From positions 121,708,001-121,772,000 of the forward strand of contig CM059431.1 of assembly GCA_030390025.1 (NCBI GenBank): a DNA stretch of 64,000 nucleotides. The letters are read 5' to 3'. Made by a program: the position numbers and the translations under genes. The notes under the pieces are model-generated. The model saw nothing but the letters and a program-made list of their open reading frames with translations. It was not told where the DNA came from and searched no databases. The stretch comes from Squalus acanthias (Eukaryota). Shown piece by piece: positions 23,446 to 62,228 of the stretch (position 1 is its first letter; every line of letters starts with the position of its first letter).

Positions 23446-23984
23446 CTTGATAGGGGCATGCTCAAGGATGCCAAAGAGGACAACACTCCTTTGTTGCACT
23501 TCTTCCAAGTGCACCTCTAAAACTGCATTAAAAAACAGAACATAACTGCTCTTTCCTGCAGCCAGTTCTCCTGTTTACCTCACAACAATTAAGGTGTGCC
23601 TTTATGTAACAGCTGTAGCTATTAAGAACTGCAGCTACCTCCAATTTCCCACCGCCTGATGAATGCGAGCTCTGAACAAGCATCACATTTGCTGCTCCAT
23701 TACACTGCTGGCTTATCTTCATGAACAGAATTGTTTCCCTTCATATGTGGACCTAACTTGCATTTAACATGGAAAGAACATCCCAAGGCACATTATTGAG
23801 AGTTATGGGGGAAAAATGGATATTAGAAGGGGCTACTAAAAGCTTCATCAACATGTGGTTTTTAAGGAGGTTCTTACGGGAGGAGGAGGAGATTGAGAGT
23901 TGGAGGGGTTTAGGGAAGGAATTCCTGAGCATGAGACCTGGATGGCTGAAAGCACAGCCGCCAATGGTGGGATGAAAAGATGGG

Positions 23985-24515
23985 GAACATAAGAACATAA
24001 GAATTAGAAGCAGGAGTAGGCCATTCAATGAGATCATGGCTGATCTTCTGCCTCAACTCCATTCACTGGCTCTATCGTCATATCCCTTGATGCCTTTACT
24101 AGCCAGAAATCTATCGACATCTGTTTTGAATATTCCCAATGACTGAGCCTCCACAGCCCTCTGGGGTAGAGAATTCCAAAGATTCACCACCTTCTGTGTG
24201 AAGAAATTTCTTCTCATCTCAGTCCTGAATGGCCTACCCTTTATCCTGAGGCTGTGGCCCCTGGTTCTAGACTCCCCAGCCAAGGGAAACATTCTCCCAG
24301 CATCCACCCTATCAAGCCTTGTAATAATTTTGTATGCTTCAATGGGATCCCCTCTCATTCTTCTGAATTCAAGAGAATACAGACCTAGTTTACTCAATCT
24401 CTTCTCATACGACAGTCCCGCCATCCCAGGAATCAATCTCGTGAAACTTCATTGCACTCCCTCTATGGCAAGTATATCCTTCCTTAGGTAAGGAGACCAA
24501 AATTGTACACAGTGA
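23985..24515 (-). mobile_element. CR1 LINE 3' fragment within older L2-like sequence
   Basis: ORF 24053-24436 'LYSLEFRRMRGD..RNFFTQKVVNLWNSLP'; (aacataag) tail. Confidence 0.88.
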
Positions 24516-24715
24516 AAATGCACAATAGGCTGGAATCGGAGGAATGGAGAATTTGGGAAGACAGGTTGTAGTACTGGAGAAAGTTACAGAGATAGGGAAA
24601 AGTGAGGCCAGGGAGGGATTTAAAAACAAATGGTTGTAAATTTAAAATCTGTGGGCATTAGTGGACCAGAAGCCATCTACAAGAGGCAATATATACATAA
24701 GGAAGAAGAAAGGGT

Positions 24716-27116
24716 TGTAAGGTTTCCAAAATTTGCAGATCCTCAAAACCTAAGGAAATTAGACTTTGGAACTACCTCAGAGTGATAAAAATGCATTTGG
24801 GACTAACGTAAGGAATTTAAAACCAAAAAACAAGTTTTGGCATTTTAAACATAGAAACATAGAAACATAAAAGATAGGAGCAGGAGTAGGCCATTCGGCC
24901 CCTCGAGCCTGCTCCGCCATTCGATGAGATCATGGCTGATCATCCAAATTCAGTACCCTGTACCTGCCTTCTCCCCATATCCCTTGATACCTTTAGCTTT
25001 AAGAAATATATCTAACTCATTCTTCAATATATTTAATGACTTGGCCTCAACTACCTTCTGTGGTAGAGAATTCCACAGGTTCACCACTCTCTGGGTGAAG
25101 AAATTCTTCCTAATTTCTGTCCTAAATGGCTTACCCCTTATCCTTAGACTGTGACCCCTGGTTCTGGATTCCCCGACCATCGGGAACATCCTTCCTGCAT
25201 CTAGTTTGTCCAGACCTGTCAGAGTTTTATATGTTTCGATGAGATCCCCTCTCATTCTTCTATATTCCAGCGAGTACAAGCCCAATCGACCCAATCTCTC
25301 CTCATGTGTCATTCCTGCCATCCCAGGTATTAGCCTTGTGAATCTTCGCTGAACTCCTTCCATGGCAAGAACATCCTTCTTCAGATAAGGCGACCAAAAC
25401 TGCACACAGTACTCAAGCTGTGGTCTCACCAAGGCCCTGTACAACTGCAGCAGGACATCCCTGTTCCTATACTCAAACCTTTCGCTATGAAGGCCAACAT
25501 ACCATTTGCCTTCTTCACCGCCTGCTGCACCTGGATGCTTACCTTCAGCGACTGGTGCACAAGGACACCCAGGTCTCGTGGCACTTCCCCTTCTCCCAAT
25601 CTATTGCCATTCAGATAAAACTATGTCTGGGCCTGTAAAGGGACAAGGAGGTGGGTACAACCTCTGTAAAAGCAGTTTGGTTATTGCAGTTAATTGCACT
25701 GTCTGGGGAACCGGGATGACCTCACTCAAGCCCCAGCAGAAATTAACATTTGAACAATAGACCCAGGGAAAGAGCAGTCCCACCCAAAATACAGGCCCCA
25801 TCAAAACCGATTACAGGGCCCATCAGAAACATACATATTAAAACCCACTCAGGACCATTCTATAGAAAGACCGAGTCCAGCCAAGAAACCCAAACACAAA
25901 ATCAATCACCAGTTATCAACCAAGGAGATCGACAGGATGCAAGCCATCCCAAAAGCCATTTGACACTTACAGAGCGGTTACTGGTAACAGGCCCGCCAAA
26001 ATCAGACAATGAACTGAGCAGATTTGGCGAGTAGATAAGGCCATGTTCAATGGGTGAGATTGAAGGCCTGTTAAAAAACCAATTAACACGCTAGTAAATC
26101 GTTGCCGGTTAACGAGCCCGCCAAAACCAGACAATGAACTGAGTAGATTTGACGGGTAGATAAGGCCACTTCAATTCCATATAATTGAAGGCCCATTAAG
26201 CACTCAGGTGATCATCAGAAGAAGAAGAAGCAAGGAAGAAGACAAGCCGAGCTGGAAGCGAGTCGGCATCGCTCACCACTCAGACACACCTGAGTCCAGC
26301 TCGTGAAGATACCACCTCGACGGACCTCCAACAACGGTCCCAACACAGTCACCCGGAGCAACAAGCAGCAACAAGTTACCGACAGCTCCACGAGGTCGAC
26401 CGACACACTAGACAAGGCGTAAAACCATCGCGGAAACCAAAGGCCCCAAGAAACCAACAACTGCATATTACCCCCAACTGACCGGGTCATAGCAGGCCAC
26501 CGCGACCAACAAAGACCAACTCAAGGGAAGAAAAACCCGAAAAACCACAAGTGTCCACACTACAAACTACTCCTGACTTACCCCTGGGTAAGATTCTCCC
26601 CAAAGACTCTAAACCCTACTGCTAAACCAAAGAAATTGGGTACTCACCAGATAAATCCATAATGACATCCTACCGCATCAGCAGACTCGCGAAGACTGAC
26701 CAGATATGCAGGTGAAGTGCTCTACCGTGTACGGGGTACAGCAGACACTAACCGCCATAAAAAGCAAACCCCAAAACCGCGATTTAGCCCAACTGTCAAA
26801 GGATTGGTGAGCATTATCCCTGGTCCTTCAAAACCTAACTTAGCTAGTAAAGCGGGGTTGGGAGGGGTGAAGTATTGTTCTACTGTCATTTCCCTCGCTT
26901 GTACCGAAGTGTTCCCCACCTTTAGAGTATTAAGAGTGTTATTATTTGTGTCTTACCTTTTATTAAAGATTGAAGTTCTTTCATCAAACTCAGTTGTCTG
27001 CTGCACCTTTTGTCACAACCCCCAAATAAGTCCAAGGTCTAGAACCAAGGGAGTGGGAGAGATTCGAACCGCTCAGAAGTCAGAGGTGAAGCTGACACAA
27101 ACCACCACCCCCTACA
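24716..27116 (+). repeat. 5' LTR (contains a CR1 insertion)
   Basis: TGTAAGGTTTCC...CCCCCTACA; direct repeat of 40111-41735 once 24850-25615 is removed. Confidence 0.95.
24850..25615 (-). mobile_element. CR1 LINE 3' fragment inserted in the 5' LTR
   Basis: ORF 24950-25444 'YRALVRPQLEYCVQFWSP'; (acatagaa) tail; absent from the 3' LTR. Confidence 0.92.
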
Positions 27117-27119
27117 TAA

Positions 27120-27137
27120 TGGCGACCGCGGCAGGAC
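27120..27137 (+). promoter_or_regulatory. Primer binding site, tRNA-Arg(UCG)-type
   Basis: TGGCGACCGCGGCAGGAC lies 3 nt after the LTR and complements the recalled vertebrate tRNA-Arg(TCG) 3' end GTCCTGCCGCGGTCGCCA. Confidence 0.85.
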
Positions 27138-27190
27138 CTTGGCAAAAGGGATGTGATGCAGTGGACACTGTTTTTGAGGAGAGAACCAAG

Positions 27191-28939
27191 ATGGAGGAAA
27201 GGATTTCCTCCTATGTGTTCAAAAAGGTGAACATAACTAAGAAGTGGGTACTCAGTCTGCTACGTGCTGAACGTCCAATAGATGCTGCAGCTAAGTGGAC
27301 TGAGAGCAAAGACCACAGGAAATCTGTGGAAAAGGCCTTCTGGTTGATCTGCTCCCAGAAACAGATACAACTGTTGGACAAACGTGTTGAGATACTCAAA
27401 GCAGAACTGCAGGAGTCGGCTCAGCTGTCTCAAGCAAGGGCCCCAGCAGGGGAAACATTACTGAATGAGCTAACAGCACGAGATCAGGAAAGGAGGCAGT
27501 TAGTGGAAACGCACAGGAACAGTCAAGAGTATTTTCAGTGTCAGGTCACCGAAGCAAAAAGCAGTGAACTAGTGTTGAGGGAAGAGAACACCTGCCTTGC
27601 CAGGCAAGTAAAGGAACTAGAGGAGAGGTTAAGAGATGTCCAGGCAGCTTACAAGGTAGCAAGCTCAAGGCGGTATGAAACGGGAGAGCATGGCCCCTGC
27701 CAGAAACAAATAGAAAGTTTGAACCTTGCTCTGTCCAGAGCCAAAGACATGGTATGCCTGTTAAGCAAGGGTATGGCCCGAATGGACCTGGAAGTGCAGG
27801 GGGAAACTATTTGAACACCACCTGTGGCGCCGGGGAACGACCCAGTTGGGCAGCAGGAAGAAAGGGCGATTTGTGAGGCTGGCAGGGAGTGCACACCACC
27901 ACCTGTGGCGCCGGGTTTTGACTCGGTTTGGCAGCAGGCAGAGGTGGGCGAACCAATGCAGGAGAGGTCGGAGCCGGGGCCAATGTGCCCGGTCCGGCAG
28001 CAAAAGTTTGGCCCACCCGGAGGTGGTTGGGATCAAGGAGCCCTTGAAAGCCAATTTGTGGCTCCCCACGGTACCCAACAGCTTAGGGCTATGATAAGCC
28101 ACCTGGGCAAACTCACCCAAAAAGGGGACCCCTCAGTCCACTTCATGGAAGTGGAACATGCAGCAGGCATCAATGACTGTGATGATGCCGAGATGGCCAA
28201 AATGCTCCTGTTTTCACTGGACAGCAAAATCTACCATTCCCTTTCCGCAGAGAGTAAAAGAGGGCAGGGTGGATATGCTGCTATCAGAGAGGGAGTTCTG
28301 GAGGCCATGGGTATGAACGATGGTAGTCCTTTCTCCAGTGTGGAGAAGACTACACAGCTAGTAGGGGAGACCCCACAGGCTTTCGCAGACCGACTGTGGC
28401 CTGTGTACAGGAGTGCCTGTAACGGGGATCTCGACAGGGCTCCTCTGAATCAGGATGAGCTGGCCCACTGGCTCCGAAGTCTGGTGGCAAACAGCTTGCC
28501 ACGGATCAGAGCCAAGGCCGAGCTGTGGTTTGACCCAAGGGACCCCCGGGGCACCGAAGAGACAGTCAGACAACTGACGCTAGCTTACCGAAACGATAGG
28601 GGGACAGAAGAGCATCCACCCAAGGGGAAGGTGCATGAGTTAAAACCCAGCCAGGGTAAGAAACAGTGGCACCAGGAAGGGGGTAACCCTTCCGACACGA
28701 AGTGTAACTGCTTTGGGTGCGTGAAGAGTGGGCATTGGAGGAAGGACTGTAGGAATCCGTGGAAGGATAACTTAGGAAAGAATTCCCCAGCCCCTGCCCC
28801 AAAAGTAGAAACCCCAACCTCTCCCCACACGTTAGACTCGGTCGTAGAAGCGATTCGAGAATTGTTAACTGGCCCAGGAAAGGTAGCCACAGCCATTGGG
28901 ACAGTAACCCCATCTGCCGCACCAAACACAGACTTATGA
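27191..28939 (+). pseudogene. gag: Gag: coiled-coil N-region, capsid, CCHC knuckle; one in-frame TGA at 27812
   Basis: ORFs 26717-27814 and 27824-28939 are in the same frame; MHR-like 'TQLVGETPQAFADRL'; 'CFGCVKSGHWRKDC'. Confidence 0.88.
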
Positions 28940-30419
28940 CTAGAGCCAGCGCAGCCTGTCTACCTGTGTCCCTTGGAGTACGACGCTTGGAAGAGGCCAC
29001 TTGTTAGGATGGAGGTGGAAAAGATGAACGGGACTTATCTGCTAGATACTGGAGCCTCCAGCACCATAGTCTATTCAGAGAATCCCACAATCTCACCTCT
29101 GTCTAACGGGGTCCCGTACAGTTTAGTGGGATTCACAGGTAACGAGCAGGCTGGCTCGTTCTCCGTCCCGCTGCCCATTCATTTAGGAACACTCCACACC
29201 AAGTGGACCTGTGTCCTGATGAAATGGGAGAAAGAGGGGACGGGGATCCTGGGGGCCGACTTTATCACAGGCCACAGGATTTTAGTGGATCTGAGGGACC
29301 ACTGTCTGTGGGGAGCATGTGTGGGTAGAGAAAGTGAAGTGGCAGTCATCCCAGGGAAACAGGGCAAGGGGACCTTGTATACCCTAAAACCAAAGGAAGG
29401 TTACGACCTCAAACAAATGGTCAGTAACACTCCGGTGGAGTACCAGGCATTTGTGCAAGCACACCTCGCAGCATTTGCCACTCACAAGCACGACTGTGGG
29501 AGGGTCAACGGGGTCGAGGTTAGTGTCAGTGGAGACCCCATGATCCGACCACAGAAGCAGTATAACTTCCCCAGGGAGGCGGAAGCAGACATGGAAGCAG
29601 CCATGGCTTCCTTAGTAAAGCAGGGGGTGCTGAGACTGATAGCCACCCATGTAAACTCCCCACTTTGGCCGGTTAGAAAACCGGACAACTCCTGGAGGGC
29701 CACAGTGGACTATCGGGTACTCAACCGTAACATCCCCGCCTGTGCACCCACGGTCGCAGCCGTTGCCGACCTCATTGGAAGTATCCCAGCATCTACAACC
29801 ACCTTCACAGTGCTGGACATTTCCAACGGGTTTTGGTCCATCCCTTTAAGAAGGAGGACCAGTACAAGTTTGCCTTCACGTTTAAAGGCCTGGAACTGCC
29901 TACCCCAGGGTTTCCACAATAGCCCCAGCATTTTTCATCAATGCATGGCAAATTGTCTGAAGGGTTTTAGCTAGCCCCGGCAGTTGGTACAGTATGTGGA
30001 CGACCTGCTCCTGTTCACTGATGAAGGAGAAGAACACGGTCCACTACTGGCTGAACTGCTGGAGCTGCTCAGACACGAAGGCTTTAAGGTAAACCCTAAG
30101 AAGGTGCAGATCGGCCAACAGGAAGTTAAATTCCTAGGGCTAACTGTGCGCGCAGGGAAAAGGGCCATTGACAGAGCCAGGAGGGAAGCAGTGCAGGAGT
30201 TATCAGCCCCAAACACAGTCACAGGGGTAAGATCCTTTCTAGGACTGACTGGGTACTGCAGAGATTTTATTGAGAATTATTCAGCCACAGCGGCCCCTCT
30301 GCTCCGACTCCCACAAAGGTGTAGAGTGGGCTTGGGACGAGGGTTGCGAGGCAGCATTTGTAAAGCTCAAGAAGGATCTGCAGACCGCACCAGCTCTAGG
30401 GGCTATTGATGGGGAGAAA
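28940..30419 (+). pseudogene. pol: Pol part 1: aspartic protease and reverse transcriptase
   Basis: 'LLDTGAS', 'NSPLWPVRKPDNSWRATVDYRVLN', 'LDISNGFWSIPL', 'LPQGFHNSPSIF', 'YVDD'. Stop at 29972 and small frameshifts. Confidence 0.93.
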
Positions 30420-30929
30420 GGGGTAAAAATTCAGTTGGTTGTGCCTCCCGTATGCGCCTTAAGAGGGCGCTAATGGGGCACAAAGCCGCTAGCGCCCGGG
30501 CGCAGCGATGTTTGCGCCGCTCAGGAACTTAACTAGACATTGTGCGGCGGTGCGAAACTTTACCGCTGCGACCACCTGCGCGCGTAGATTGTGACGTCAT
30601 TCCATGGTGCAATGCCCTTGTGGCGCCCCGGAGCGGAAATTGAGTGGCACCCTCTGCCTTACCGCCTGGCGCATCCAACGACCGGAAGACTGGAACGCTA
30701 TCAATCGCTGTGGGGCTGGGGGGGCGCTATTTAAAGGGGGCCTCTTCCTGTCTTTTTCTGTGGTTGACATTTTTGCACCACTCGTTCTGAGAGAGAGAGA
30801 GATATTCGGAGAGAGAGAAAGAGAGACTTCTGCATTGAGTCAACGCTGTGTGAGGTAGTTTTGCCTACTGATCCTAACTTCGCTGGTACTTTGGTTGCTG
30901 TCCTTCATAACTTTGCTTGCAAAGAGACT

Positions 30930-32090
30930 ATGGGGGCTGCACTGATTGGGGGCGTCGTCCTGCTCCAGCTGAATCGGAGGACACAGAGACGCAGAGAGAG
31001 AGTGCCAATGATAGCCAGACGGAGGAGGGCCAACAGGCGTATGTACAGGAGAGCTTACCCTCCCAGGGTATATCGTGAACAGCTCTCCTACATTCATATG
31101 TCTGAGGAGCTGTGTTTGCGAAGGCTGTGATTCAGCAAGGAGGTGGTCACTGAGCTCTGCCAGCTGCTGCAGCCAGATCTGTAGCCTCAACTGAGGTCCA
31201 GGACGTCTCTGTCGGTGGCAGTGAAGGTCACAGTGGCTCTCAACTTCTATGCTACTGGCTCATTTCAAGCTGCTGCTGGGGACCTCGCCAATATCTCCCA
31301 GTTCGCGGTGCATTGCTGCATCCGGCAGGTCACAAATGCCCTCTTTAAAAGGAGACGAGAGTTCATCTCTTTCCCCATGACCCCAGACAAGCAGCGTGAC
31401 CGCGCTCTGGGCTTTGCGAGGATAGCGGGCTTCCCCATGGTGCAGGGCGCCATTGACTGCACGCATGTGGCTTTGCGTGCTCCACATGAGAATGCCGAGG
31501 AATTCCGGAACAGAAAGGGGTTCCATTCCTTGAATGTTCAGTTGGTCTGTGACCACAGACAGCTGATACTCGCTGTCAATGCCCACTATCCCAGCAGCTG
31601 CCACGATGCTTTCATCCTGCGCCAGACTACTGTGGCAGAACTTTTCGAGGCACCGCATCAGTCAGTTGGTTGGCTTCTCGGGGACAAGGGGTATCCATTG
31701 AGCACCTGGCTGATGACACCGCTCCGTACGCCCAACCCCCCTGCTGAGCTGCGGTACAACGAGAGCCATCAAGCTACCAGGAACATCATTGAGCGCACAA
31801 TCGGCGTGCTGAAGCAACGGTTCCGCTGTCTCGACCATTCTGGAGGAGCCCTGCAGTACTCGCCTGAGCGAGTATCCAACTTCGTAGTTGTGTGCTGCAT
31901 GTTGCATAACATGGCAATCGTCAGGACCCAGCCAATGCAACCAGGCCTTGGAGCACCACCAGAGGAGGAGGAGGATGAGGAGGAAGAGGACGAGGAGGAT
32001 GATCATCAGCAGCACCAAGGCGGGAGGGCGGCCCACAATGGTGAAACTGCAAGGGCCGTCCGTCAACGGCTGATAGCAAGCCGCTTCTAG
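30930..32090 (+). pseudogene. Harbinger DDE transposase (HARBI1-like), two in-frame stops
   Basis: 'GAIDCTHV', 'NRKGFHSLNVQLVCD', 'HDAFIL', 'WLLGDKGY', 'RNIIERTIGVLKQRFRCL'. Confidence 0.95.
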
Positions 32091-32402
32091 GGCCCCTGCT
32101 GTGGAAATGGCTTCTGCCATTGCTAACAACATCAATGAACCCAGCACGCAACCCCTAAGCCAGCAAAGGCACCAATGATTCCAAACACCAAACATGTATA
32201 TTTTGAATACAAAAACTTATTTATTTTACAAACTCTGTGTGTGTCATTTCCTCATGACAAACTCATAGAAATAAACACAAAAAAACAGTCATTAACATAA
32301 CTGGTTCTCACAACCTGGAGATAATGTCCAAAACACTAGACAAAAGTTGGACCACGAACCTCGGCCTTTAATAAAAAAATGACCAGCATTTTGTCACACC
32401 TC

Positions 32403-34216
32403 CTACTTTTTGCCCTTCAAGGGTGATTTCCTTCCCTTGCGCACTTCCCCCCTTCTAACCCTACTGCTCCTCCGTAATGGGACCTCAGTGGCTGCAGCAA
32501 GGCTGGTGGAAGGCTGCAGATTGTCAGACCCTGACACTGCAGATGCCCCTGAAGGACGGCCTCGACCAGTTCTGGGCCTGGAGGGCCCGGCTGCAGACTG
32601 CACCAACTCTGCATGGGCGGCAGCAGTCTGTCCTACAGGCGGTGGCAAGTGCAGTGGAGAAGTGACAGTGTTGGCAGCAGGAATGCTGTCAGCATGAGAG
32701 AGGACAGCAACTCCCTGCTCGCCCGACACACTGGCACTCCCACGGGGCAGCACTTCAGCATCGGGAGCAATCTGCTGGAGCACAGATTGCTGGCCTGCTG
32801 CGGCGCGGTGAGAGCCCTGGGGACATGTGAACGAACCATCAAGGTTGGCAGCAGTCAGTGCTCGCGTGGCCTCAATCTGCATGAGAGCAGTCAGAGATGG
32901 GATCACGGCAGTCAGTGACTGAATTGCAGCACTAAGCGTTAGTGTGGCATCCGCCTGTGCTACAGCGAAGTGCTCCACACTCCTTGCCAGTGACTCAATG
33001 CATTCGGGCACCCTTCCCACTGCACCCATGAGCTCAGTGTGCATGCCCACCGCCTGGGTGTTCATTTCTGCGATCAGCCGCTCCTGCTCTGCGTCCATTG
33101 CAGTAGGAGTCGCTGGCATACTCTCCCTCTGGGGAGAAGGCCCCCGTTCTTCCCTACCCCCATGGCGTTGCTGCAGCCCGCTGGGTCCTGGAGCTTCACC
33201 CTCATCAGACCCTTCCCCCCTGCTCCCCTCCAGGGAAGGCGTGTTCCCAGTGTGGGCATGGGCTTCCTCGGGAGACGGTGGCACTGATGCTCCGGCTTCC
33301 TCTTCCTCCTCGGCTGCAGCTTCACTCCCACTGGCAGCTTCAGGGCCCGTCTCCTCAGCTGGTGAATCACCATCTGAAAGCCGGGAGGTACAAGAGTGGC
33401 TTTAGCGTGAGGACAGGGTGGCAGTAAGGGAGGAATAAGTGCAGCGAGTTAGCAAGTTGGATTGAAAGTGTCAAAGGCTGGTGTTGTGAGGGACAAGTGG
33501 AAGGACAGAGGACAAAAAGGTGATGACCTTACCATTGCTGTCCAGAACGGGGTCAGCGTCTCCAGTGGCGACGGGACCGATCACCCGGCTTGCCACAATC
33601 CTGTGGACGCGCTCCTCAAGATCGCTGAGGGGTTGCAGCTGAGGCCGCCCTCCACCTGTCCGTTGCTGCTGTCTCCAATTATGCGCCAGCTTGGCCTGCA
33701 AGTAAAAGGACAGCATCTGAGTAAATATACAGCCATGGTCTTGCCTGATGTGCCTCCCATAGGTGAATAGCCCTTACTGTATGCAGCCATGGTCTTGCCT
33801 GATGTGCCTCCCATAGGTGAATAGCCCTTACAGTATGCAATGTGTGGAATGTGTGTGTGTGTTTCATGAAAGGGCCATAGGTGTTGGATGAGTGTTGTGC
33901 ATTGGGGTTTTAAGACCCTCTGGCCATAGAGTGAGGTTGAGATGGAGGGATGGAGAGGTATTGAGAAAAAGCCACTCACCCTGACGACCCGAGTGAGGTC
34001 GTTGAACTTTTTGCGGCATTGAACATGGGTCCTGGGCACCATGCTCCTGGAGGAGACGCTCTGAGCCACCTCCCTCCACACTCTTCTGTACTCGCGTGGC
34101 AAAGGCCTCCTGCCACTCTCAGGGAAGAGTATACATCTTCAGCGCTCCACCGCGCCAACCAGAGCATCCAAGGCCCGCTCGGTGAAGCGCTGAGCTCGTT
34201 CTCTCACCCTCTCCAT
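32403..34216 (-). pseudogene. Harbinger Myb/SANT-like protein gene; exons ~34216-33980, 33695-33533, 33373-32403
   Basis: 'RAQRFTERALDALVGAV...VWREVAQSV..RTHVQCRKKFNDL'; GT-AG introns (gtgagt/ttgcag, gtaagg/tttcag); basic C-terminus. Confidence 0.88.
33730..33838. repeat. 54-bp tandem duplication in the Harbinger intron
   Basis: 'cagccatggtcttgcctgatgtgcctcccataggtgaatagcccttac' starts at 33730 and 33784. Confidence 0.9.
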
Positions 34217-34577
34217 CCTTGGCAGCAAAATGGATTCACAGGTCTCTCCAGGCCGAGATTCAAGGCTGCAATGAGTAGGGTGTGGCTGGGGAGCAAGTTG
34301 GCCCCCCCGCTTTAAGAACTGGCCGGCGCCAGTGTGTCTGTGTTCCCTCGCTAACTGGCAGCGCCTGCGCTGCGCCCGCGCGCTGAGTTTGTGCCTCACT
34401 GCTCGGCCTTTGCACCTTAAGACAGTTGTGCAGCGCCTGATTTAGCGCTCCACTCACCTCCCGGGGCGGTAAAAGTGAAGTTTCCAGTCAGTGCCGATAA
34501 TTAGCGCCAGGCGCTAATTTTTGCGTCCAGACGATATTTGCTCCCCAAATGGGGCGCGACCTAATTTTTCCCCCAAA

Positions 34578-36920
34578 GAGTTTTTCCAGGAGGTGGCAGC
34601 CAGCGGGGACAGTCTGAGTGCTGTGCTGCTCCAAGAGAGGCACGACAGGCTGAGACCAGTGGTCTACTCCGCCAGGATACTCACTGATGTGGAGAAGGGC
34701 TACTCTAACTGTGAGAGGCAGCTCCTCGCCACTCACTGGGCTGTGAAAAGATCATTGATCTTCACAGGCACATCTCCCATCACCCTGCTCACCCATCACA
34801 CGCCCACCCAGATGCTCCTAGATGGGAGAATCAAAGATGGGACAGTGAGCAGTGCCCGCATTGCCCGCTGGACCCTACTTCTCTCCCAGATGGACCTAAG
34901 GGTAAAAGGTCTCTGCGAGCCGAGGCTCGCAGCCAATCTGATTTACCCAGGGAACGCCCACCGGTGTTCCATTGAAGGGGTATGGGAAGTCAACATAGGT
35001 TTTCGGGCCGGGATACACACCACAGGCCGCAAAATCTATGTGGACGGTTCGAGCACAGTATCTGCTGGAGAACGACTCAAAGGGTGTGGAGTTTATGACC
35101 CAGAGGCGGACATTGCCTTGGCCATTAAACTCCCCAGCACCATGAGCGCCCAGCAGGCTGAACTGTCTGCAGTGGTGTATGTGGTTACACACCCCGAGAA
35201 GTTCCCTACCCCATACACGATTTGCTCGGACAGCATGTTCACATGCAATTCGTGTACGGAGTACCTGGCCATCTGGTCCCGTCGCGGATACACCTCCGCT
35301 GATGGGAGACCCCTTACCATAAAGCCCCTGTTGGAGAGAATCATGGCAGCAGTGGGGGAGGAAGGGAAGGTTTTTATCCATAAGGTAAAGGCCCACTCTA
35401 AGAAAGAGCCCAAGTGGGAAAACAACCACAAGGCAGACAAGCTGGCCAAACAGGGGGCCAGAGAAGGAGTATTCTGGGACCCGTACCAAGCGGGTCCAGT
35501 AGCAGCAGTCCGGGCAAGGGGAAGCACACAGGGTGTAGCTTTGGCCCCGGAATTAAAGCAGGCCCAAGCCCAGGACACAGTCCTCAAGACTGTCCTGAAC
35601 AGGCTTGAAAAAGGGGAGAAAGTAGAGGGCCCGTACGGCGCAGTAGCCATTACCGTAAAGGAAGGCATGCTGTTCAGGGGGGAGCAGTGGGTGGTGCCAC
35701 AGCAGCACCGAAGGGAATTCCTCCAACTGGCCCATGAGCGTCCAGGAGCGGGGCATCCCGGACCTGAGACCACCTGGCAACGGGTGGAACAGACAGGATG
35801 GTGGCCAGGACTCCGGGAAGATGTCCGCGAGTTTTGTGCAGGCTGCCTAGTGTGTGCTGCTAACAACCCAGACCCCCAGAAAAGGAAGGTGTCCATGGGA
35901 CACATCAGGAGGGTAGAGGGACCATGGCAGTCGATCCAGATCGACTACATCGGGCCCCTACCCGCTGCCCAAGGAGGTTTTAAGTACTGCCCAGTCCTGG
36001 TTGATGTGTTCTCAAAGTGGGTAGAAGCATTCCCATGCCGTACGGCTACTGCATTGGGTACGGCTAGGATCCTAGTCAGGGAAATGTTCTCACGATGGGG
36101 AGTACCACAGTATGTGGAGTCCGACCAGGGGAGTCATTTTACTGGGCAGGTTATGCAAGAGACCCTCAGGGTGCTCGGCAGAGAGGGGAAATGGCACGTC
36201 GCCCACAACCCGCAGTCATCAGGTCCTGTGGAGCATTTAAACCGTACCATTAAGGAAAGGCTACGGAAGGAAACGGGAGACTCACCCAAAAGATGGGTAG
36301 AACTCTTACCGTTGGTCTTAATGGGGATCCGAGCCAGCCAGTCAAAAAGCACGGGGTATTCCCCACACGAGCTCATGACTGGCAGGGTTATGCGGACCCC
36401 CACCCATGTGCTAGCCCCGGTGCTCACGGAAGGGCAGCTCAGAGAGGTGAACCGGGACAGATTCGTCAGGAATCTGTTGGGCCACCTTAAACAGGTCCAG
36501 TGGCAGGCTGCGAGCAACATGGGAAAACAGCATCGGAGTAACCGATTGCTGCTCCAACCCCGCAATCACCACGAGTGGGAGGTGGGAGATCAGGTCATGG
36601 TTAGGAATTTTGCCCGGTTGGGGAGATTCGAACCATTGTACATGGGGCCCTACCACATTGTGGACAAGGCAAGCCCCATGGTCTATGCCATAAAGATGCC
36701 CCGCCGTACAAAGTGGTTCCATATCAACCAATGCAAGCTGTTTAAACCCGAGAAAAGGGAACAGTCAGCAAAGGTGGACCACCCCAAAGTTAGAAATCCC
36801 CAGCCAGCAGCTGTGGCAGACGCACAGGCTGCAGCAACAGGGACCGTGGCTTGTATCACATTGGGTACACTCCACCGATTATGTGGGACTCAGGCACACC
36901 CCCAGTGGCCAGAGTCCTGA
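34578..36920 (+). pseudogene. pol: Pol part 2: degenerate RNase H (tether), second RNase H, integrase
   Basis: 'EKGYSNCERQLLA'; then 'IYVDGS..SAQQAELSAV..ICSDS..HKVKAH..NHKADKLAK'; HHCC 'AH..GHPG..CLVC'; 'IDYIGPLP', 'SDQGSHF', 'SSGPVEHLN', 'GPY'. Confidence 0.95.
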
Positions 36921-37472
36921 GAAGGTCTCCTCGCACACCACAGCCTAAACTGCCGTGGTCACCGGTACATCAGTGGGTCAGCCCAAAAGGGGCTGCAACC
37001 CGAAAAGGAGTGCCCAAGGCCAGGGAGCGTTCAAAAGTTAGGGATCCCCAGCCGGCAACCTCACGCTGCGGGGAACCCACAGGACAGGACAGGGACTCAG
37101 CAGCCACACCAAAGGAGGGGACACTCCCGGGATTGTCAGGGATTCAGGGAAACCCTCAGTTGTTCTAAGAAGGACTCTCAAGTTCCTGCGGTACAGGCCA
37201 CCTTACGTCCAGGCGTACAGGCTGCTCAGAAGCTGCCCAAGGTAGAGGCCATGCAGGGATTGAGCTGGCCGTCCGGAGATGGGCGGCGAATGTACAGAGT
37301 TTTAATTTTAGGTGTTTTACAGTTTTGGTAGTTTTAGGATTTTAAGAATTCTAGTTTTAAGGATTTTAGTAAGTAAGTTTAAAGATCTCAAGAATCGATC
37401 ACCCGTCAAGCCGAAGAACCTTCTCGGGACATGGCTGTCTGTTTTGTGTGTCCCTACAGAGAGGAAATCGGC

Positions 37473-39814
37473 ATGGCAAGGGTTCTGCTCCTGCTCGCCC
37501 TGGTAGGGGTGAGCATTGGTGACCGAGGTGACATGGAGGACTCCCACATCTATGGGTGCTCATGAGAGAGAGCACCGGTCGTTACCGCAGGGGGTGGTGA
37601 GCGGGGAGTGGAGGAGCTCGCCATCTACTTCCACGAGGGAAGGTGGCCAGGGTGGCTGGGGTTCAACTCTACAAGATACTCCAGCCAGACCAGGTTCACG
37701 TACGGGGAGGCCTCCCTCCCATGCCCCAGAGTACAGGTCGTTGCCACGAGGGTCAGCGTCACCGAGGGGAAACGTGTGTGCCTTACCTGCAAGGGACGAA
37801 TTCCCCTGAACAGGTGGTGGTGGCTCAGGAAGCTAAGCAGGGACGCAGGGGACCATACAGCCGACTGGGAACGATTAGGGAACGACACCTACCGGACAAT
37901 CACAGCGACCCATGGGGGAGTGAGTGTGTGTTGGGATAAGTGGTGGGAGTCGGAACAGGGAGTCTATGTTTGTATGTGGGGGTCAGAGAAAGCCTGCCCC
38001 ACAGGCATATCCATCATCTTCTCCATACAATGGCAAGATGTCGGGGAGGGGATGGGGTGGGATTCTAGCCTACATGCATGCGCGCTCCCACACTCCCTGG
38101 TCCCAGTTAACGCCACCGAACCAGTAGCACGCCCCCGAATGCCCCTGCCCACGACCACAACCTCACAGACAGTAGTAGAGAGCGTCCTACCACCACCAAG
38201 GGACCAGAAAATGGGCTAGTACTAGTGCTGACCAAAAAGGTACTCTACCAGGGGGTACACTATGCAGTAGCTTCAGTTATATTAAACCTTACCGAGGTAC
38301 ACTTACCTAAATGGTGTCCTAAGGAGACAGAACAGCTATACCAGGCCCTGCTAAAAGAAATGTTGAGAAAATTCTATGAATTTGACTTTGCCAACATAGA
38401 CAAAGCAGAGCTGTACAAACTGCACGCAGAGCACACTATGGGCGCAGGGAGACAAAGAAGGGGAACCTGGAACGATATTTTCACTACCTACAATACAGGA
38501 TCCTCTGTAATAAATAGCCTAGATGACGTAGAGCTACAAACACAGATAAATGGTTTAAAAACCCAGTTAAGAAAGATCCTAAAGGGTGAGAACACAGTCG
38601 TAGGCTCAGAGCTACAGGAGGACCAAGCTATGACGGTCCATCTAAAAGAGATTATTGCTGAGCTAGAGAGACACGCTAAAACAGTAAATGCACTTATACG
38701 GGAGGACAGGAATGCTTCGGATCAGGCTGCACAGACTGAGGTGTGTGTGCTATATGGGGCATGGTTGCTGGGCGAGGGCCGCAGCAACCTGGAGGATTTA
38801 AAACAAGGTTTAGTCCCCTCCTGGATTAGCAACAAACACCTCGCAGCCCTCCACCCGTTCAGCAATTCACTGAGCCCGTGTCAGCTCTGCCTAGCCTCTG
38901 AAGCCTACCCAGTCCCAGTAGATTGTGGGCGTTCAAATCACACTATCATGGGGATAGTAGTGAGGATGCCGGTCATGGGTGGGACAGCCCATCCCGCACC
39001 GGTATACAGGGTGGAGAACATTGGGGTCATTCAAGGGGGTGCACACGTCCGTTTCGCAGCGGTCCCACCTTATGTCATAAAGTGGGAGCACGCTATGACA
39101 GGTACTGACCTCTCCGGGTGCTGGAGCCGGGGTTCACACATAATACTGTGTCCCCAGCACTTGAACACCTACTGTAGACCACAGTGCGGGTTTAAAGCTG
39201 CTGGCGCATGACCTATCAACTGTACCATGGAGGTAATGGCACAAGGCCATGTTCCCCCACAGGTAGCATTCATAGGGGGTGGGACATATTTTGTCACCAC
39301 AAGTACGCCCCACTACCAGCATGGACAGCATTTTTGGTGTCCGGTGAGTGACAGCAGTTTCTGCTTTAAACCCGAGGCAGAAGTTCAAGTGGCCCAGGAT
39401 CGGATTGTCCCCATTCCTGAACCCTCAACTGTTCACCTCACTGTAAGGGAAAACATTACCAACCTGCAAAACTATGTCACATTCTTCATCTATAAGATTC
39501 CTCCTCTACCCGAACACCTTACCGTCTTACTTAAAGCTGTACAGGTATCACAAAAGTATTTCTACACCCTAGAACAAAAGACACTCGAGATAGGGGCTGA
39601 GATTTCGGCCATCACGGTTCCACCCTGGTGGGACATTTTTGAAAATATAGAGGTTCCTTCCTGGATTAGGATGGCCTCCCACATCTTAGTGGCTTGCCAG
39701 CTCGGGATAGTCTTGTACTTGCTGTGTACAAAGTGTAAGGGGAAGGACAGAATGCTCCATTCCCGGCATGAGAAAGCCTGGGAAAAACATTACAATAAAG
39801 TTTACCAAGTATAA
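37473..39814 (+). pseudogene. env: Envelope glycoprotein (signal peptide, Ig-like domain, class I F-like fusogen, TM); 2 stops and 1 frameshift
   Basis: Splice acceptor 'ctgttttgtgtgtccctacag' ends 37459; 'MARVLLLLALVGVSIG'; furin site RQRR (38450-38461); heptads; Cys-rich region; TM 'HILVACQLGIVLYLLC'. Confidence 0.88.
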
Positions 39815-40098
39815 AAACAAGCCTGAATTGATTCTAAAAATAAAGAAGTTTTGTGATTGTGTGTTATTTTCTTTCTATGTATGTATTGTGGTTTTTTCCA
39901 AGTGGTGCATGGGTGTTGGACCCCCTCCGTGCTTGCTTGTGTATGTATTATTGTATCTTACCTGTATGTATTGGAACACTACACCAAAAAGGGGAATGTA
40001 TGTTTTTGGGTTTTAGTTTAGGTAATACAGGGAAAGGTTGGCTTTCGAGGATCAGGAATTTTGTCCACCCAGGACGATAATATAGTGAATTAAAGTAT

Positions 40099-40110
40099 CA
40101 AAGGGGGGAC
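40099..40110 (+). promoter_or_regulatory. Polypurine tract
   Basis: CAAAGGGGGGAC directly before the TGTA of the 3' LTR. Confidence 0.9.
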
Positions 40111-41735
40111 TGTAAGGTTTCCAAAATTTGCAGATCCCCAAAACCTAAGGAAAAAGGACTTTGGAACTACCTCAGAGTGATAAAAATGCATTTGGGCCTA
40201 ACCTAAGGAATTTAAGACCAAAAACCAAGTTTTGGCATTTTAAAACTATGTCTGGGCCTGTAAAGGGACAAGGAGGTGGGGTCGACCTCTGTAAAAGCAG
40301 TTTGGTTATTGCAGTTAATTGCACTGTCTGAGGAACCGGGATGACCTCACTCAAGCCCCAGCAGACATTAACATTTGAACAATAGACCCTGGGAGAAGAC
40401 AGTCCCACCCAAAATAACAGGCCCCATCAAAACCGATTACAGGGCCCATCAGAAACATACATATTAAAACCCACTCAGGACCATTCTATAGAAAGACCGA
40501 GTCCAGCCTAGAAACCCAAACACAAAATCAATCACCAGTGATCAACCAAGGAGATCGACAGGACGTAAGCCATCCCAAAAGCCATTTGACACTTACAGAG
40601 CGGTTACTGGTAACAGGCCCGCCAAAATCAGACAATGAACTGAGCAGATTTGGCGGGGAGATAAGGCCATGTTCAATGGGTGAGAGTGAAGGCCTGTTAA
40701 AAAACCAGTTAACAGGCTAGTAAATCCTTACCGGTTAACGAGCCCACCAAAACCAGACAATAAACTGAGTAGATTTGGCGGGTAGATAAGGCCACTTCAA
40801 TTCCGTATAATTGAAGGCCTGTTAAGCACTCAGGTAGTCATCAGAAGAAGAAGAAGCAAGGCAGAAGACAAGCCGAGCTGGAAGCGAGTCGGCATCGCTC
40901 ACCACTCAGACACACCTGAGTCCAGCTCGTGAAGCTACCACCTCGATGGACCTCCAACAACGGTCCCAACACAGTCACCCGGAGCAACAAGCAGCAACAA
41001 GTCACCAACGAGGTCGACCAACACACAAGACAAGGCCTAAAACCATCGCGGAAACCAAAGGCCCCAAGAAACCAACGACTGCATATTACCCCCAACTGAT
41101 CGGGTAATACCAGGCCACCGCGACCAACAAAGACCAACTCAAGGGAAGAAAAACCCGAAGAACCGCAAAGTTTCCACTCTGCAATCTACTCCTGACTTAC
41201 CCCTGGGTAAAATTTTCCCCAAAGACTCTAAACCCAACTGCTAAACCAAAGAAACTGGGTACTCAGCTGATAGATCCAAAATGACATCCTACCACATCAG
41301 CGGACTCGCGAAGACTGACCAGATACGCAGGTGAAGTCCTCTACCGCGTACGGGGTACGGCAGACACTAACCGCCATAAACAGCAAACCCCAAAACCGTG
41401 ATTTAGCCCAACTGTCAAAGGATTGGTGAGCATTATCCCTGGTCCTTCAAAACCTAACTTAGCTGGTAAAGTGGGGTTGGGAGGGGTGAAGTATTGTTCT
41501 ACTGTTATTTCCCTCGCTTGTACCGAAGTGTTCCCCACCTTTAGAGTATTAAGAGAGTTATTATTTGTGTCTTACCTTTTAATAAAGATTGAAGTTCTTT
41601 CATCAAACTCAGTTGTCAGCTGCACCTTTTGTCACAACCCCCAAATAAGTCCAAGATCTAGAACCAAGGGAGTGGGAGCGATTCGAACCGATCAGAAGTC
41701 AGAGGTGAAGCTGACACAAACCACCACCCCCTACA
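40111..41735 (+). repeat. 3' LTR (1625 bp)
   Basis: TG...CA; TATA-like TATAAT ~40806; AATAAA at 41581; direct repeat of the 5' LTR. Confidence 0.95.
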
Positions 41736-41739
41736 GGCT

Positions 41740-42260
41740 GCAGAATGCAAGCTTGAGAGACTCCACTGGTGACGATGTGAGGCTGAGAATAGAAGGCATT
41801 GGTAGAGATGCTCTGGCTACAATTGGATAGCTAAGAGTGGAACCAAAAGAGGGCAGTTCCACCAAGCTAGACATGAAGGAATCTTTGGAAGCGTTGGAAG
41901 AGTAGGTGGTGGTAGATATTGCCAAAACCTACAGTAAGATAAAAAATGGATAATGCATAACAGTCACCATCACAGAGAAGGCTGTTTGTGACTCTGATTA
42001 GGGTCATTTCAGTGCTGTGGCAGGGATGGAAATTTGATTGGAGGGATTAAAAAATGGAATTGCAGGAGTGATGAGCATGGATTTGTGAGGTGATAGCATA
42101 TTCAAGGTTCTTTGGAGAAGAAAGGGAGGTTGTAGATGGGGCGGTACTTGCAAGGACAGAGGGGTCGAGAGTGCTTTTTTGAGAAGTGGGTGATGAAAGC
42201 AACTTTGAAATGGAAGTGGGCAGTGCCAGCAGAGAGGAAACCATTTGCAATGCCTGAGAG
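41740..42260 (-). mobile_element. Old L2 LINE fragment
   Basis: Reverse complement resembles the RT region of the L2 at 49880-50250 (ctcgacccctctgtccttgcaa..ccgccccatct). Confidence 0.7.
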
Positions 42261-44974
42261 TGCTGAATTTATCCATATATGTTTACTGATGTGACCCTAT
42301 CTAAAAGGTAGCGCTTGATCTCCATTAGGCATGACAGCAGTGCCTACACTTCTAAAATAATTAACTGACTATGAAGCACTTTGGGATGTCCTGAGGTCAT
42401 GGAAGACACTATATAAATGCAAGTTATTCTACATTTTGCAGAAAACTATACTGGGGTCTTTAAATTTACACAAATGTAAAACAAGGAATCGACAATTTTA
42501 AAGGGACCTGAATCTGTGTTATCATTAGCCAAGTCTCTGCCCGTCTCGAATTTGTTTCATATTCATCCCTACCATGGTTACACACACCACTAGGAAGCTA
42601 GATTTTAAGTGAATTTCTTCCAGTTTGTCAATGAATAATAAGAAAACATATTTCTTCCCCTTGCTCCTTGTCAGCTGAGCTATGTCATATTGCCAATACA
42701 TTTATTTTTTGACAACTGTGTCCTACTTTGAAAGCTGATTGCTATAATGTGTTTAAATGCAATTCTTGCATAAGTGATGTTTCTTATGTTCTTAACCTGT
42801 CATTGAAATCTTGGCAAATCACCATAAAGCAGTTAATATCAGAGAATTGAGCTATTAGATGTAACCTATTTGAAGGTGACCACATAGCTATTAAAACGGC
42901 ACCTCCTTCAAACATGTTAGCAGCCACTGATAATGCTGGATTTAAATTTATAAAATGATTGCTCTTTGCAAAGTAGGACTTGTTTTTGACATTTCAGGGA
43001 ATGAATGCAAAGCATTAAGAAATGTATATAGAAATTATATCAGCCATAAGTAGCAATAAAAAAGGGTAAGAAAACCATTAGTACATAGCAGATGCACTGT
43101 AGGCAGGAGGCAGGGACTTGGTTAACTTTGGTGCATCACCAGAAAGAAAGCAGTACAACGTAGTGTAAAGCAATAGTATTACAGATGTAGTGTTATTTCT
43201 GTTATAATGCGACTTCTCTTTGGCTCCTTTTAAATAGAAGAAACATTATTTTTTTTTTAAATCATTTTTACAGTGCCTTAGCACATTTCTCAAAAAAAAA
43301 TTAACAAAGTACTTTGAAATGCAGTCATCATTTAGACAAGCAAAGCAGTCATTTGCATGGTGAGATCCCACATGAGATGAATGTTCAGCTTATCTGTTTT
43401 TTGGTAGTATTGGTTGAGAAAGGAATGTCAGTCCGGACCACCGGGCGAACTCTCTGCTCTTTTGACTAATGCCACAGGGTGTTTAACATCCATCCATAAC
43501 GCTATAATCTTGGTTTAATCTCCAAAGGACAGTGCCTCTGACAAAGCAGCGCTCCCTCACTTTTGCACTCGAGCATCAGTCTAGATTAAGTGCACAAGAT
43601 CTAGACTGAGGCTTGAACTTAGAATTCGCGGATTCAGAAGCAAGAATGATAGCAACTAAGTTAAGCTGACACTACATAAATAATGTGCTGGTGGATTTTA
43701 CTGCTGAAATTTTCTTCATTAGTACTTGGTCTACAATTGGTGATATTGGAAGCAGTATCAGATGTGGGAGGAGCTTTTTCATTCAATAGAATAAAAGATG
43801 GCCACTTGGGCCAACATTGTGCAACTACATAAAATGGGATCTGAGTAGACAACAACAGGCAAGAAGAAGTACTAGAAAGATAAAGTAACAGATGAAAGTA
43901 ACAGAGAGACAGGCAGAGAGAGACTCCCTTTGGAAAATTGGACATGTGCAGGAGAGGAAAAGCCATGGAAAGGACAGTGAGCATCTGGGAAGGAGGATTA
44001 CTGTCAGTTGACAGTGTCAGTAAGAAAGGATTTAGCATGTGCAGCAGGACTGCAAAGTAGTTTCATGAGCCCCATAAATGACTGAGAGGAAGGCACATGT
44101 GTGGTATAAATATTTTATCTTCTGATATGTCATCATACTCTGCTTGATAATACTGCAAATTTGCATATGAATTTGATATGCCAGAGCTGATTTATCCAGG
44201 TGCTACAAATCTTTCAGATATCAGCTCCTAGGTATCCAGGTATCCTAAGCATTTAATGGATGCCTATCAAACCTGAAAATTCAGTATGAAAATAAAGGCA
44301 TCTGGTCCTAAAAATAAACACCATCTATTTCCTCAGGCATCTGCTCGATCCAATGGGGTAACTTCAGGAGAAGATGTGCAGTAACCTCGAAATTTACACC
44401 AACATTTATGCCCATCTTCCCATTGGCAAGTTACACCAAAATTTCCTGAGAAGGACCAGAGTGCAAGAATAGGCAGAAATCAGGTAGAAATCAGAGTAAG
44501 CAATCTGGGCCCAAGGAAAGCACAGCCAGTCCATTAAAGCTATGAAAATTCAAGTTTGAAGCCATCATACCTTCATTTACGCACATTAGGCAATGCATTT
44601 TTTGGAAAATACAATTGTCGTAGTTTTTCCATTTTTAATGTAAGCAATTCTAATGCCACCAAAATGCATTCAAAGTGATAGAAAATGCAGTGCAGCTCTC
44701 AGTAAGTGAAAATATATATTTTTTAAACTAAGAAAAGTACTGTAAAAGTCCGTAAATGCTGACCATAGGCCCTACTGCACCTAATTCTTGTTGGCTTAAA
44801 TCTACACCAGGAAATCTGCGTTTAGACTGCTTTTGCATGGGGCATAATGACCTTCAAAGGGTTTCGACAGATGTTTTGAGGATGTGGTGCAAAAGGTCGA
44901 GGAAATTCGAGCATGGCACCTACACCCAAATTTCCTCAATCTTTTATGCCAGAAATCAGCATTATGCCATTACT

Positions 44975-61800: not shown

Positions 61801-62228
61801 ACTTTGCCTGTTCAATATTTTTCTGCACTTTAACCCTCCTTACTGTTGGCCTTTGTTTCTGCTCCCTACTAGTTTTGCTGACTACTTTTCAAACTTTCAC
61901 TTCCTGCTTTGTTTCTCTCCATTCTGGATCCACACTTAGGTTCCCAGCTGCCTGACAAACTAGTTTAAATCCTTCCCAACAGCACTAGCAAACCCCCCTG
62001 TGAGGATATTGGTCCCGGTTCTGCCGAGGTGTAACCCGTCCAGCTTGTACAGGTCCCACCTTCCCCAGAATCGGTCCCAATGCCTCAGGAATTTAAATCC
62101 CTCCCTCCGACACCACCTCTCTAGCCATGCATTCATCTGGTCTATTCTCCTATTTCTGCTCTCACTAGCACATGGCACTGGGACTAATCCTGAGAATACT
62201 ACCTTTGAGGTCCTGCTTTTTAATTTAT
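58893..62228 (-). mobile_element. Long CR1 LINE (ORF1 esterase end, AP endonuclease, RT) nested in another CR1
   Basis: ORF1 'NAWLERWCRREGF..DGLHL' (SGNH-type); EN 'GVVYRPP..DFN..PTR..LDLVL..LGTSEH'; RT 'NYRPVSL..QHGF'; (aacataag) tail. Confidence 0.92.

Follow-up and report, generated by a model that had tools for sequence, protein, structure and literature searches.

What kind of retrovirus left the provirus at 24716-41735 of this 64,000-nt window of the Squalus acanthias genome (the window being the whole stretch of DNA analysed), and how far does its envelope reveal where it belongs? An initial annotation had described a complete provirus in or near the lokiretroviruses, with an envelope protein (Env) resembling the fusion (F) proteins of the Mononegavirales. 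The locus is a complete but broken long terminal repeat (LTR) provirus, a dead germ-line member of an abundant endogenous retrovirus (ERV) family, and its Env is predicted to carry the F fold; the lokiretrovirus assignment is not supported. In our proposed reading the element is a member of a deep retroviral lineage present in sharks and rays, frogs and the coelacanth; it is orthoretrovirus-like in organisation and has an F-type Env, and its nearest exogenous relative is the snakehead retrovirus (SnRV). We give this reading a probability of roughly 0.7.

The element belongs to Retroviridae rather than to Ty3/Gypsy by its Pol grouping, its second RNase H, its env gene and its tRNA primer binding site (PBS). 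Pol and env were mapped by blastx on two intact relatives, P0009 (Pol) and P0085 (Env), and the start of gag was taken as the first ATG past the PBS. The main parts are as follows:

24716-27116 (+): 5' LTR, whose own sequence measures about 1635 bp once a foreign insertion of 766 bp is set aside
27120-27137 (+): PBS for tRNA-Arg(TCG), TGGCGACCGCGGCAGGAC, three bases past the 5' LTR
27191-28939 (+): gag, from the open reading frame (ORF) listing, with a coiled-coil N-terminal part, a capsid (CA)-like region and one CCHC knuckle
28940-30419 (+): pro-pol, first part, protease and reverse transcriptase (RT); Pfam RVP E 2.9e-4, RVT_1 E 1.4e-11 and 6.7e-12
34577-36920 (+): pol, second part, tether (a degenerate RNase H), RNase H and integrase; Pfam RT_RNaseH 2.4e-16, RNase_H 2.7e-19, Integrase_H2C2 3e-19, rve 1.1e-14
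37431-39814 (+): env, with about 794 codons in copies whose frame is unbroken, ending 296 nt from the 3' LTR
40100-40109 (+): polypurine tract AAAGGGGGGA, read from the sequence, one base ahead of the 3' LTR
40111-41735 (+): 3' LTR, 1625 bp

All the cis elements and genes claimed at the outset are thus in place, and so are the diagnostic motifs then named for Gag, protease, RT and integrase, from the CCHC knuckle through LDISNGFWSIPL, LPQGFHNSP and YVDD to IDYIGPLP:

28709-28750 (+): CCHC knuckle of Gag
29039-29059 (+): protease motif LLDTGAS
29813-29848 (+): RT motif LDISNGFWSIPL
29900-29926 (+): RT motif B, LPQGFHNSP
29993-30004 (+): RT motif YVDD
35940-35963, 36117-36140 and 36216-36236 (+): D (IDYIGPLP), D and E of the integrase, which also has the HHCC motif and an SH3-like C-terminus (weak Pfam SH3)

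The placement rests in the first place on Pol. The close homologues of both Pol and Env come from sharks and rays only (Pristiophorus, Rhinoraja, Heptranchias, Scyliorhinus, Mustelus, Chiloscyllium and Heterodontus), and the next relatives from the frogs Xenopus tropicalis, Aquarana, Rhinophrynus, Pelodytes and Bombina, joined for Pol by the coelacanth. Among sharks Pol identity is 77% to P0009, 81% to the sequence of Heptranchias perlo and 77% to that of Scyliorhinus torazame; for frogs and coelacanth it is 47-50% over the stretch from RT to tether. Measured against P0009, RT identity is 51-57% for the frog and coelacanth ERVs, 43% for SnRV (the highest of the exogenous viruses compared), 33-38% for foamy viruses, 34-38% for gammaretroviruses, 26-30% for deltaretroviruses and 22-27% for Gypsy elements. 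The full RT motifs of the window read LDISNGFWSIPL, LPQGFHNSPSIF and QYVDDLLLF, and a motif B of the LPQG[FL]HNSP type is found in all the shark, frog and coelacanth relatives, as it is in SnRV, foamy viruses and gammaretroviruses. The reference retroviruses were taken from the IMG/VR collection: the SnRV contig was identified by its Pol, which contains the row labelled SnRV in the supplement of the lokiretrovirus paper (PMC7947760), and a motif scan assigned 37 further contigs to foamy, gamma- and deltaretroviruses by length and motif B (confirmed by Pfam in nine of the nine scanned). When the viral collection was scanned with the closer Pol alignment, SnRV was the sole relative found; the scan with P0009 alone returned no relative.

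The maximum-likelihood Pol tree (29 rows, seven of them Gypsy, and 840 columns) splits the retroviruses, the window included, from Gypsy at 100/100 and joins the window to P0009, also at 100/100. Support for the shark/frog/coelacanth group is 81/80, and the group lies outside the foamy viruses, which form a clade of their own (100/100, stem length 1.97). A clade of this group with SnRV obtains a p of 0.48 in the approximately unbiased (AU) test, and a larger, quick Pol tree gives the same picture. Other properties of SnRV agree: its RT carries LDISNGFWSI, FAFTF, QYTW..LPQGFH and LQYVDD, its Gag has a CCHC knuckle, its gag and pol lie in one frame across a stop, and its Env can be aligned with ours as a profile (see below). 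The two are nevertheless distant, Pol being just 31-43% identical and the SnRV Env 1042 aa long. Xu et al. 2018 (PMC6001957) place SnRV-related elements, their 'clade Huo', in all vertebrate classes.

Env is the second line of evidence. Across two breaks in the frame, the env of the window follows the unbroken 794-codon frame of another family copy at 92% and 91% identity (blastx; locus L040, protein P0085), and its landmarks are:

37473-37520 (+): signal peptide
38201-38227 (+): GPENGLVLV, start of the F2-like segment
38450-38461 (+): RQRR, putative furin site, followed by a polar peptide
39665-39727 (+): membrane anchor; the F1-like ectodomain lies between RQRR and this segment

An AlphaFold2 model built on a 29-row alignment has a confident core, residues 250-320 and 410-660 reaching a predicted local distance difference test (pLDDT) score of 75-94. 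Over its ectodomain this model is of the paramyxo-/pneumovirus F fold. Foldseek finds 225 PDB matches at E <= 1e-3, and all of those listed are paramyxo-/pneumovirus F proteins, the top one being F of human parainfluenza virus 3 (1ztm_B, E 3.6e-10). In VIA-align, likewise, the best 50 PDB entries are all F proteins, with Z from 13.0 down to 9.0, headed by F of Langya virus (8tve_A, Z 13.0, 356 residues aligned) and by 1ztm_B (Z 12.9), and the alignment lays Env residues ~258-730 on F residues ~26-476, that is, on the whole ectodomain. The model has a long heptad repeat A (HRA) helix after the furin site and a heptad repeat B (HRB) ahead of the anchor, in line with the paramyxo-/pneumovirus F proteins (PF00523; PDB 1ztm, 8tve, 3rki), whose ectodomain likewise combines a furin site with HRA and HRB. 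A language-model search agrees, its nearest clusters being PF00523 and Baculo_F (PF00523 in 13 of 30 matches, score 0.92). Differences are clear as well: sequence identity to the F proteins is 8-15% with no Pfam match, and these proteins have no counterpart to the N-terminal domain of about 215 residues that stands ahead of the F2-like segment in the S. acanthias protein, which is retroviral. The transmembrane (TM) subunit has no CC doublet and therefore no CX6CC motif.

At the sequence level the resemblance fades. Pfam gave nothing relevant on the Env pieces of the window even at E <= 10, PF00523 and the foamy Env family PF03408 included; PF00523 matched none of the 29 Env family members at E <= 1, PF03408 matched none of them either, and phmmer and profile searches against PDB sequences returned chance matches only. 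A search of the S. acanthias genome for PF00523 also gave no match, although it was a weak search whose controls stayed silent, and is no evidence of absence. No pairwise comparison of Env by BLASTP or phmmer, either with SnRV or with 11 foamy Envs, reached an E below 0.1. Profile-profile alignment (hhalign) goes further: Env matches SnRV Env at E 2.8e-5 (probability 74%, 348 colinear columns that include the cleavage site) and the globular domain of foamy Env TM at E 4.3e-5 (probability 69%, 132 columns); foamy Env and SnRV Env gave no match to each other. An exhaustive Env profile search over 1.84 billion proteins found 47 relatives, and the 10 of them that were identified by name are from sharks, rays and frogs only. 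Among the predicted viral structures of BFVD, the Env model matches Env of walleye epidermal hyperplasia virus 1 (WEHV-1) at rank 2 (E 9.8e-14), Env of walleye dermal sarcoma virus (WDSV) at rank 20 and feline foamy virus Env at rank 44 (E 1.5e-4), together with many mononegaviral and baculoviral F-type proteins; the best match in that database is an unnamed viral protein of 928 aa, A0A384ZVF2. Three gene predictions from Pristiophorus and Heterodontus (P0006, P0089 and P0109) join Env pieces to host genes; they are named Niban 1-like, cadherin-related 5-like and fbxo15 isoform, and ERV insertions have probably misled the annotation into such chimeras.

Several points weigh against placing the element in an SnRV-related lineage with an F-type Env. 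The initial annotation had looked to RT and integrase trees with lokiretroviruses to place the element; our Pol tree settles the retroviral side against Gypsy, but it was built without lokiretrovirus, epsilonretrovirus, ERV-L, lentivirus or published shark foamy-like ERV (FLERV) sequences, and it leaves the deep branch in a trichotomy of SnRV, the shark/frog/coelacanth group (81/80) and the foamy viruses with the gamma, delta and other ERVs (81/84). The AU test rejects neither a clade of the group with foamy viruses (p 0.086) nor one with the gamma, delta and other ERVs (p 0.061). SnRV lacks the tRNA-Arg(TCG) primer site (0 matches at up to three mismatches) and has a 205-aa 3' ORF that is absent from the S. 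acanthias element. The Env links to SnRV and to foamy viruses are weak profile matches, and the Env model has a mean pLDDT of 58 and is uninformative over residues 1-247. The names of the homologues make an elasmobranch host likely, and the surroundings offer no check of this: a Pfam scan of 28 of the 30 listed flanking ORFs (at least 130 codons) found no host gene, only LINE-like pieces.

Is the element then a lokiretrovirus, or the closest sister of that lineage, extending it to cartilaginous fishes? The thought has real attractions. Env has the F fold and its nearest language-model clusters are those of PF00523; the group is basal among retroviruses in our Pol trees, near the position described for lokiretroviruses; and its relatives live in Xenopus, Aquarana and Latimeria, which are also lokiretrovirus hosts. 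By eye, the C-terminal core of the integrase (LPLVLMGIRAS...SPHELMTGRVM) resembles the lokiretroviral LPLVLMAIRAT...SPFEMITGRKM, and the F2 start GPENGLVLV resembles GPPTGIVLQ. In both, the F-type Env has coiled coils, a membrane anchor and a cleavage site of basic residues, and both follow the order LTR-gag-pol-env with a dual RNase H (tether and RNase H), a likeness common to all retroviruses and hence non-discriminating. RT points elsewhere. In the alignment rows printed for Loki-Xla, Loki-Xtr and Loki-Npa the motifs are LDCAQGYWTI, LPFGYINAGHEF and SYVDDILIKS (PMC7947760), so that all three differ from those of the window when compared by eye (LPFGYINAGHEF as against the LPQGFHNSP motif B), and identity to Loki-Xtr, counted by eye, is about 33%, no closer than to foamy or gamma viruses and well below the 43% to SnRV. 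The frog relatives carry LPQG[FL]HNSP and therefore are not the frog lokiretroviruses. The lokiretroviral Env claim, as given in the text of that paper, rests on a PF00523 sequence match (E 2.2e-7; PMC7947760), a match that none of our 29 family members gives at E <= 1. Of the two Envs printed there, the one with both ends in the text is about 570 residues long; in both, F2 is short and the basic cleavage site leads directly into a hydrophobic peptide, whereas the shark Env, at 794 residues, is ~220 longer, has the extra N-terminal domain and continues with a polar peptide after RQRR; the shark element also has no smc gene. We regard the assignment as very improbable, a rejection based on the RT signatures and the by-eye identity of about 33%. 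The claim of the initial annotation that the element lies in or near the lokiretroviruses thus finds no support in RT signatures, PF00523 and Env architecture, although its Mononegavirales-F-like Env is borne out by the structural comparisons and its missing CX6CC by the TM subunit. Its statement that lokiretroviruses had not been reported from cartilaginous fishes also agrees with the source: the main text of PMC7947760 makes no mention of them, and the one Chondrichthyes row that a search of its supplement returned, Orectolobiformes, lists three genomes screened and 0 lokiretroviruses. An F-like Env is not diagnostic of a lokiretrovirus because predicted folds of epsilonretrovirus and foamy Envs are also F-like; the misfiling corrected here is that such an envelope by itself does not make one.

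The foamy viruses are the other neighbours to be weighed. Read this way, the element would be an FLERV, also termed a cartilaginous-fish endogenous foamy virus: the sister of Spumaretrovirinae or a basal member of that subfamily, in the company of CmiFLERV, XtrFLERV and CoeEFV.2. Prototype foamy virus (PFV) integrase is the best solved relative of the integrase (E 6.9e-31) and the foamy protease-RT that of the N-terminal RT piece of the window (E 1.2e-22), as the initial annotation had sensed from the motifs; the intact P0009, however, scores murine leukaemia virus (MLV)/xenotropic MLV-related virus (XMRV) RT-RNase H above foamy RT (230 against 195 bits). The long LTRs (1.6 kb), the 4-bp target duplications, the AU result and the weak Env profile link to foamy TM would all suit a foamy relative. 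The organisation does not. Foamy viruses are defined by a Gag without a Cys-His knuckle and by a Pol that is not made as a Gag-Pol fusion. Here Gag has a CCHC knuckle, its C-terminal half (CA and nucleocapsid, NC) finds a gammaretroviral Gag by BLASTP (contig L029, E 4.5e-9) and no foamy Gag, and gag and pro-pol share one frame over a conserved stop. The protease matches RVP and, at E <= 0.01, no Spuma_A9PTase (PF03539), a family matched by five of five foamy Pols at E 1e-65 to 1e-91. Env has no PF03408 match; the primer is tRNA-Arg, not tRNA-Lys or tRNA-Asn; and with 296 nt from the end of env to the 3' LTR there is no room for tas/bet-like accessory genes. The element is thus not organised like a foamy virus, the best Pol tree does not join the group to the foamy viruses, and we consider true membership unlikely. 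Foamy Env deserves a separate word: its F-like fold is published (PDB 8RM0/8RM1; PMC11468914), and like ours it places a large surface subunit (SU) before the F-like core and has a TM subunit longer than 400 residues, but it has a leader peptide where the S. acanthias Env has a plain signal peptide, and none of the 50 PDB entries listed by VIA-align is a foamy Env. A last possibility is a recombinant, in which an ordinary retroviral gag-pol acquired an F-type env from a lokiretrovirus or a mononegavirus. Env indeed has no sequence similarity to gamma-type Envs and its nearest structural neighbours include mononegaviral glycoproteins, yet the nearest relatives of Pol and those of Env come from one set of hosts, first sharks and rays and then frogs, as co-inheritance predicts, Env has its weak colinear homology to the Env of SnRV, the nearest exogenous relative by Pol, and F-type folds are predicted in several retroviral lineages. 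We judge such a capture improbable.

How does the proposed shark/frog/coelacanth lineage relate to what has been described? The published text groups shark and frog FLERVs and places a second coelacanth lineage beside CmiFLERV (PMC5512871), so that CmiFLERV, XtrFLERV and CoeEFV.2, together with the catshark ERV-Spuma.0-Sca (PMC10699275), come from the same hosts as the relatives found here; in published trees the shark and frog FLERVs stand deep, near foamy viruses and SnRV. These papers report that only pol was detected in ghostshark and Xenopus, or no Gag or Env domains (PMC5512871; PMC10699275). Judged by description rather than by sequence comparison, our family most likely belongs to these published foamy-like or SnRV-related ERV groups. 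It differs from the FLERVs, again as described, in that gag and env are now in hand, which supplies both genes for a lineage that the portions of the literature consulted describe from pol alone. A 2023 paper by Wang, Chen & Cui on cartilaginous-fish endogenous foamy viruses may already include this ERV family.

The shark/frog/coelacanth lineage is a further deep branch of the retroviruses whose fusogen is of the F type, and so bears both on what the original retroviral envelope was and on how retroviral and mononegaviral fusion proteins are connected. With it, an F-type Env has been observed or predicted in five groups, namely foamy viruses, epsilonretroviruses, lokiretroviruses, the shark/frog lineage and, through weak profile homology, SnRV. 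One tentative idea, with the odds somewhat against it, is that the F-type fusogen is the ancestral retroviral envelope and the short gamma-type TM a later replacement; the five groups are the deep, mostly fish-borne branches, and the N-terminal add-on of the S. acanthias Env would mark how a bare F gained a receptor-binding part.

The life cycle that the provirus suggests would be as follows. Reverse transcription would be primed by tRNA-Arg(TCG), and integration would leave 4-bp target duplications. Gag, comprising CA and a CCHC nucleocapsid, would be made alone, and Gag-Pro-Pol by readthrough of the in-frame TGA at its end, as in gamma- and epsilonretroviruses. Env would act as a class I F-type fusogen, presumably cleaved by furin at RQRR and active in fusion, with the order signal peptide, N-terminal domain, F2-like segment, RQRR, F1-like segment (HRA, globular domains, HRB), anchor and short tail; the N-terminal domain could serve in receptor binding. 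After integration, stops, frameshifts, the 766-bp repeat and a Harbinger transposon have accumulated in this copy.

The tRNA match, the conserved stop and the target duplications behind this scheme are seen in the sequences themselves. TGGCGACCGCGGCAGGAC is complementary to the 3' end, CCA included, of host tRNA-Arg(TCG); with a T-loop motif ahead of it, the reverse complement is found 435 times in the S. acanthias genome and 0 times in the control, and ARAGORN calls tRNA-Arg (tcg) at 1447-1521 of one such locus (L049) and in a second (L050). Most of the 435 matches fall in tandem arrays of the tRNA-Arg(TCG) gene on contig C26 (~38.99-41.88 Mb, L050-L052; period ~1.6 kb), whose repeat unit is shared by tRNA-Ser(GCT). 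The stop at the end of gag is present in 11 of 11 other copies (10 TGA, one TAA), gag and pro-pol lie in a single frame either side of it, and the 81-nt junction is without indels. The LTRs begin TGTAAGG and end CCCTACA. The flanks of the provirus, GGGT and GGCT, agree in three of four bases, and both other family copies examined have perfect duplications (GCTT/GCTT and CAGG/CAGG); together these indicate that the family makes 4-bp target duplications, of which the window copy has one mutated base.

By BLASTN the two LTRs correspond over 24716-24849 and 40111-40244 at 94.0% and over 25616-27116 and 40241-41735 at 94.7%. Their 75 substitutions in 1626 aligned positions (12 gap columns; Kimura two-parameter distance 0.048) would date the integration to roughly 24-48 million years ago at an assumed neutral rate of 0.5-1e-9 per site per year. 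The damage matches what had been described, with five in-frame stops and two frameshifts as well as two later transposon insertions, both of which prove real:

24850-25615 (strand not assigned): 766-bp repeat, a later insertion in the 5' LTR, missing from the 3' LTR
27812-27814 (+): premature TGA in gag
28937-28939 (+): gag-terminal in-frame TGA, the putative readthrough site, conserved as a stop in other copies
after 29848 (+): stretch of ~12 codons in RT that cannot be aligned to relatives
29972-29974 (+): TAG stop in RT
near 30294-30310 (+): frameshift in pol
~30420-34576 (strand not assigned): PIF/Harbinger DNA transposon of ~4.16 kb at the RT/tether junction, bounds good to a few bases
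31185-32090 (+): Harbinger transposase ORF, DDE_Tnp_4 E 2.3e-38
32403-33401 (-): second Harbinger ORF, 332 codons, no Pfam match
37563-37565 (+): TGA in env
38135-38180 (+): frameshift in env, within this interval
39209-39211 (+): TGA in env

The 766-bp repeat has 6174 first-look candidates in the genome, and the 40 copies scored, the window's own among them, are 97-100% identical and full length or at most nine bases short; because of this identity we take it to be younger than the provirus. Just upstream of the provirus, at 24079-24378, lies a stretch 76% similar to it. For the Harbinger element, P0009 residues 482 and 476 border the gap in blastx, contigs of its repeat family begin at 30420 and stop at 34576-34577, and its ends, by eye, are GGGGTAAAAATT and AATTTTTCCCCC. 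In four sequencing runs (only guessed to be RNA) read depth is in the hundreds to thousands for the Harbinger family and 1-80 for the provirus; no leader-to-env joint recurred among the low-depth contigs over the provirus, and the runs are uninformative on expression.

The family itself is very abundant, with thousands of copies, many of them with an open env. First-look searches of the 3.71-Gb genome returned 4413 LTR, 1083 gag-pol junction and 11,967 Env candidates; the scored family copies are all 81-100% identical to the window, and the 40 scored LTR copies 93-100%. The initial annotation had proposed a search for intact copies; in 27 of 77 scored Env matches the matched part has no stop, and 12 of these 27 lie in frames of at least 800 codons. 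This makes the family a good subject for ERV dynamics in elasmobranch genomes. On contig C3295 (~244.9-271.4 kb) three LTR copies are spaced regularly at 12,407 bp, a spacing that suggests a tandem LTR-internal-LTR-internal-LTR array.

Rfam gave no match in 23500-42500. Beyond the provirus, the window holds fragments of RT and endonuclease resembling those of long interspersed nuclear elements (Pfam RVT_1 up to E 3e-27, Exo_endo_phos_2 E 4e-8):

16059-17189 (+): LINE-like fragment
49846-50757 (+): LINE-like fragment
59933-62901 (-): LINE-like fragment

GC skew is strongly negative across 50-64 kb of the window.

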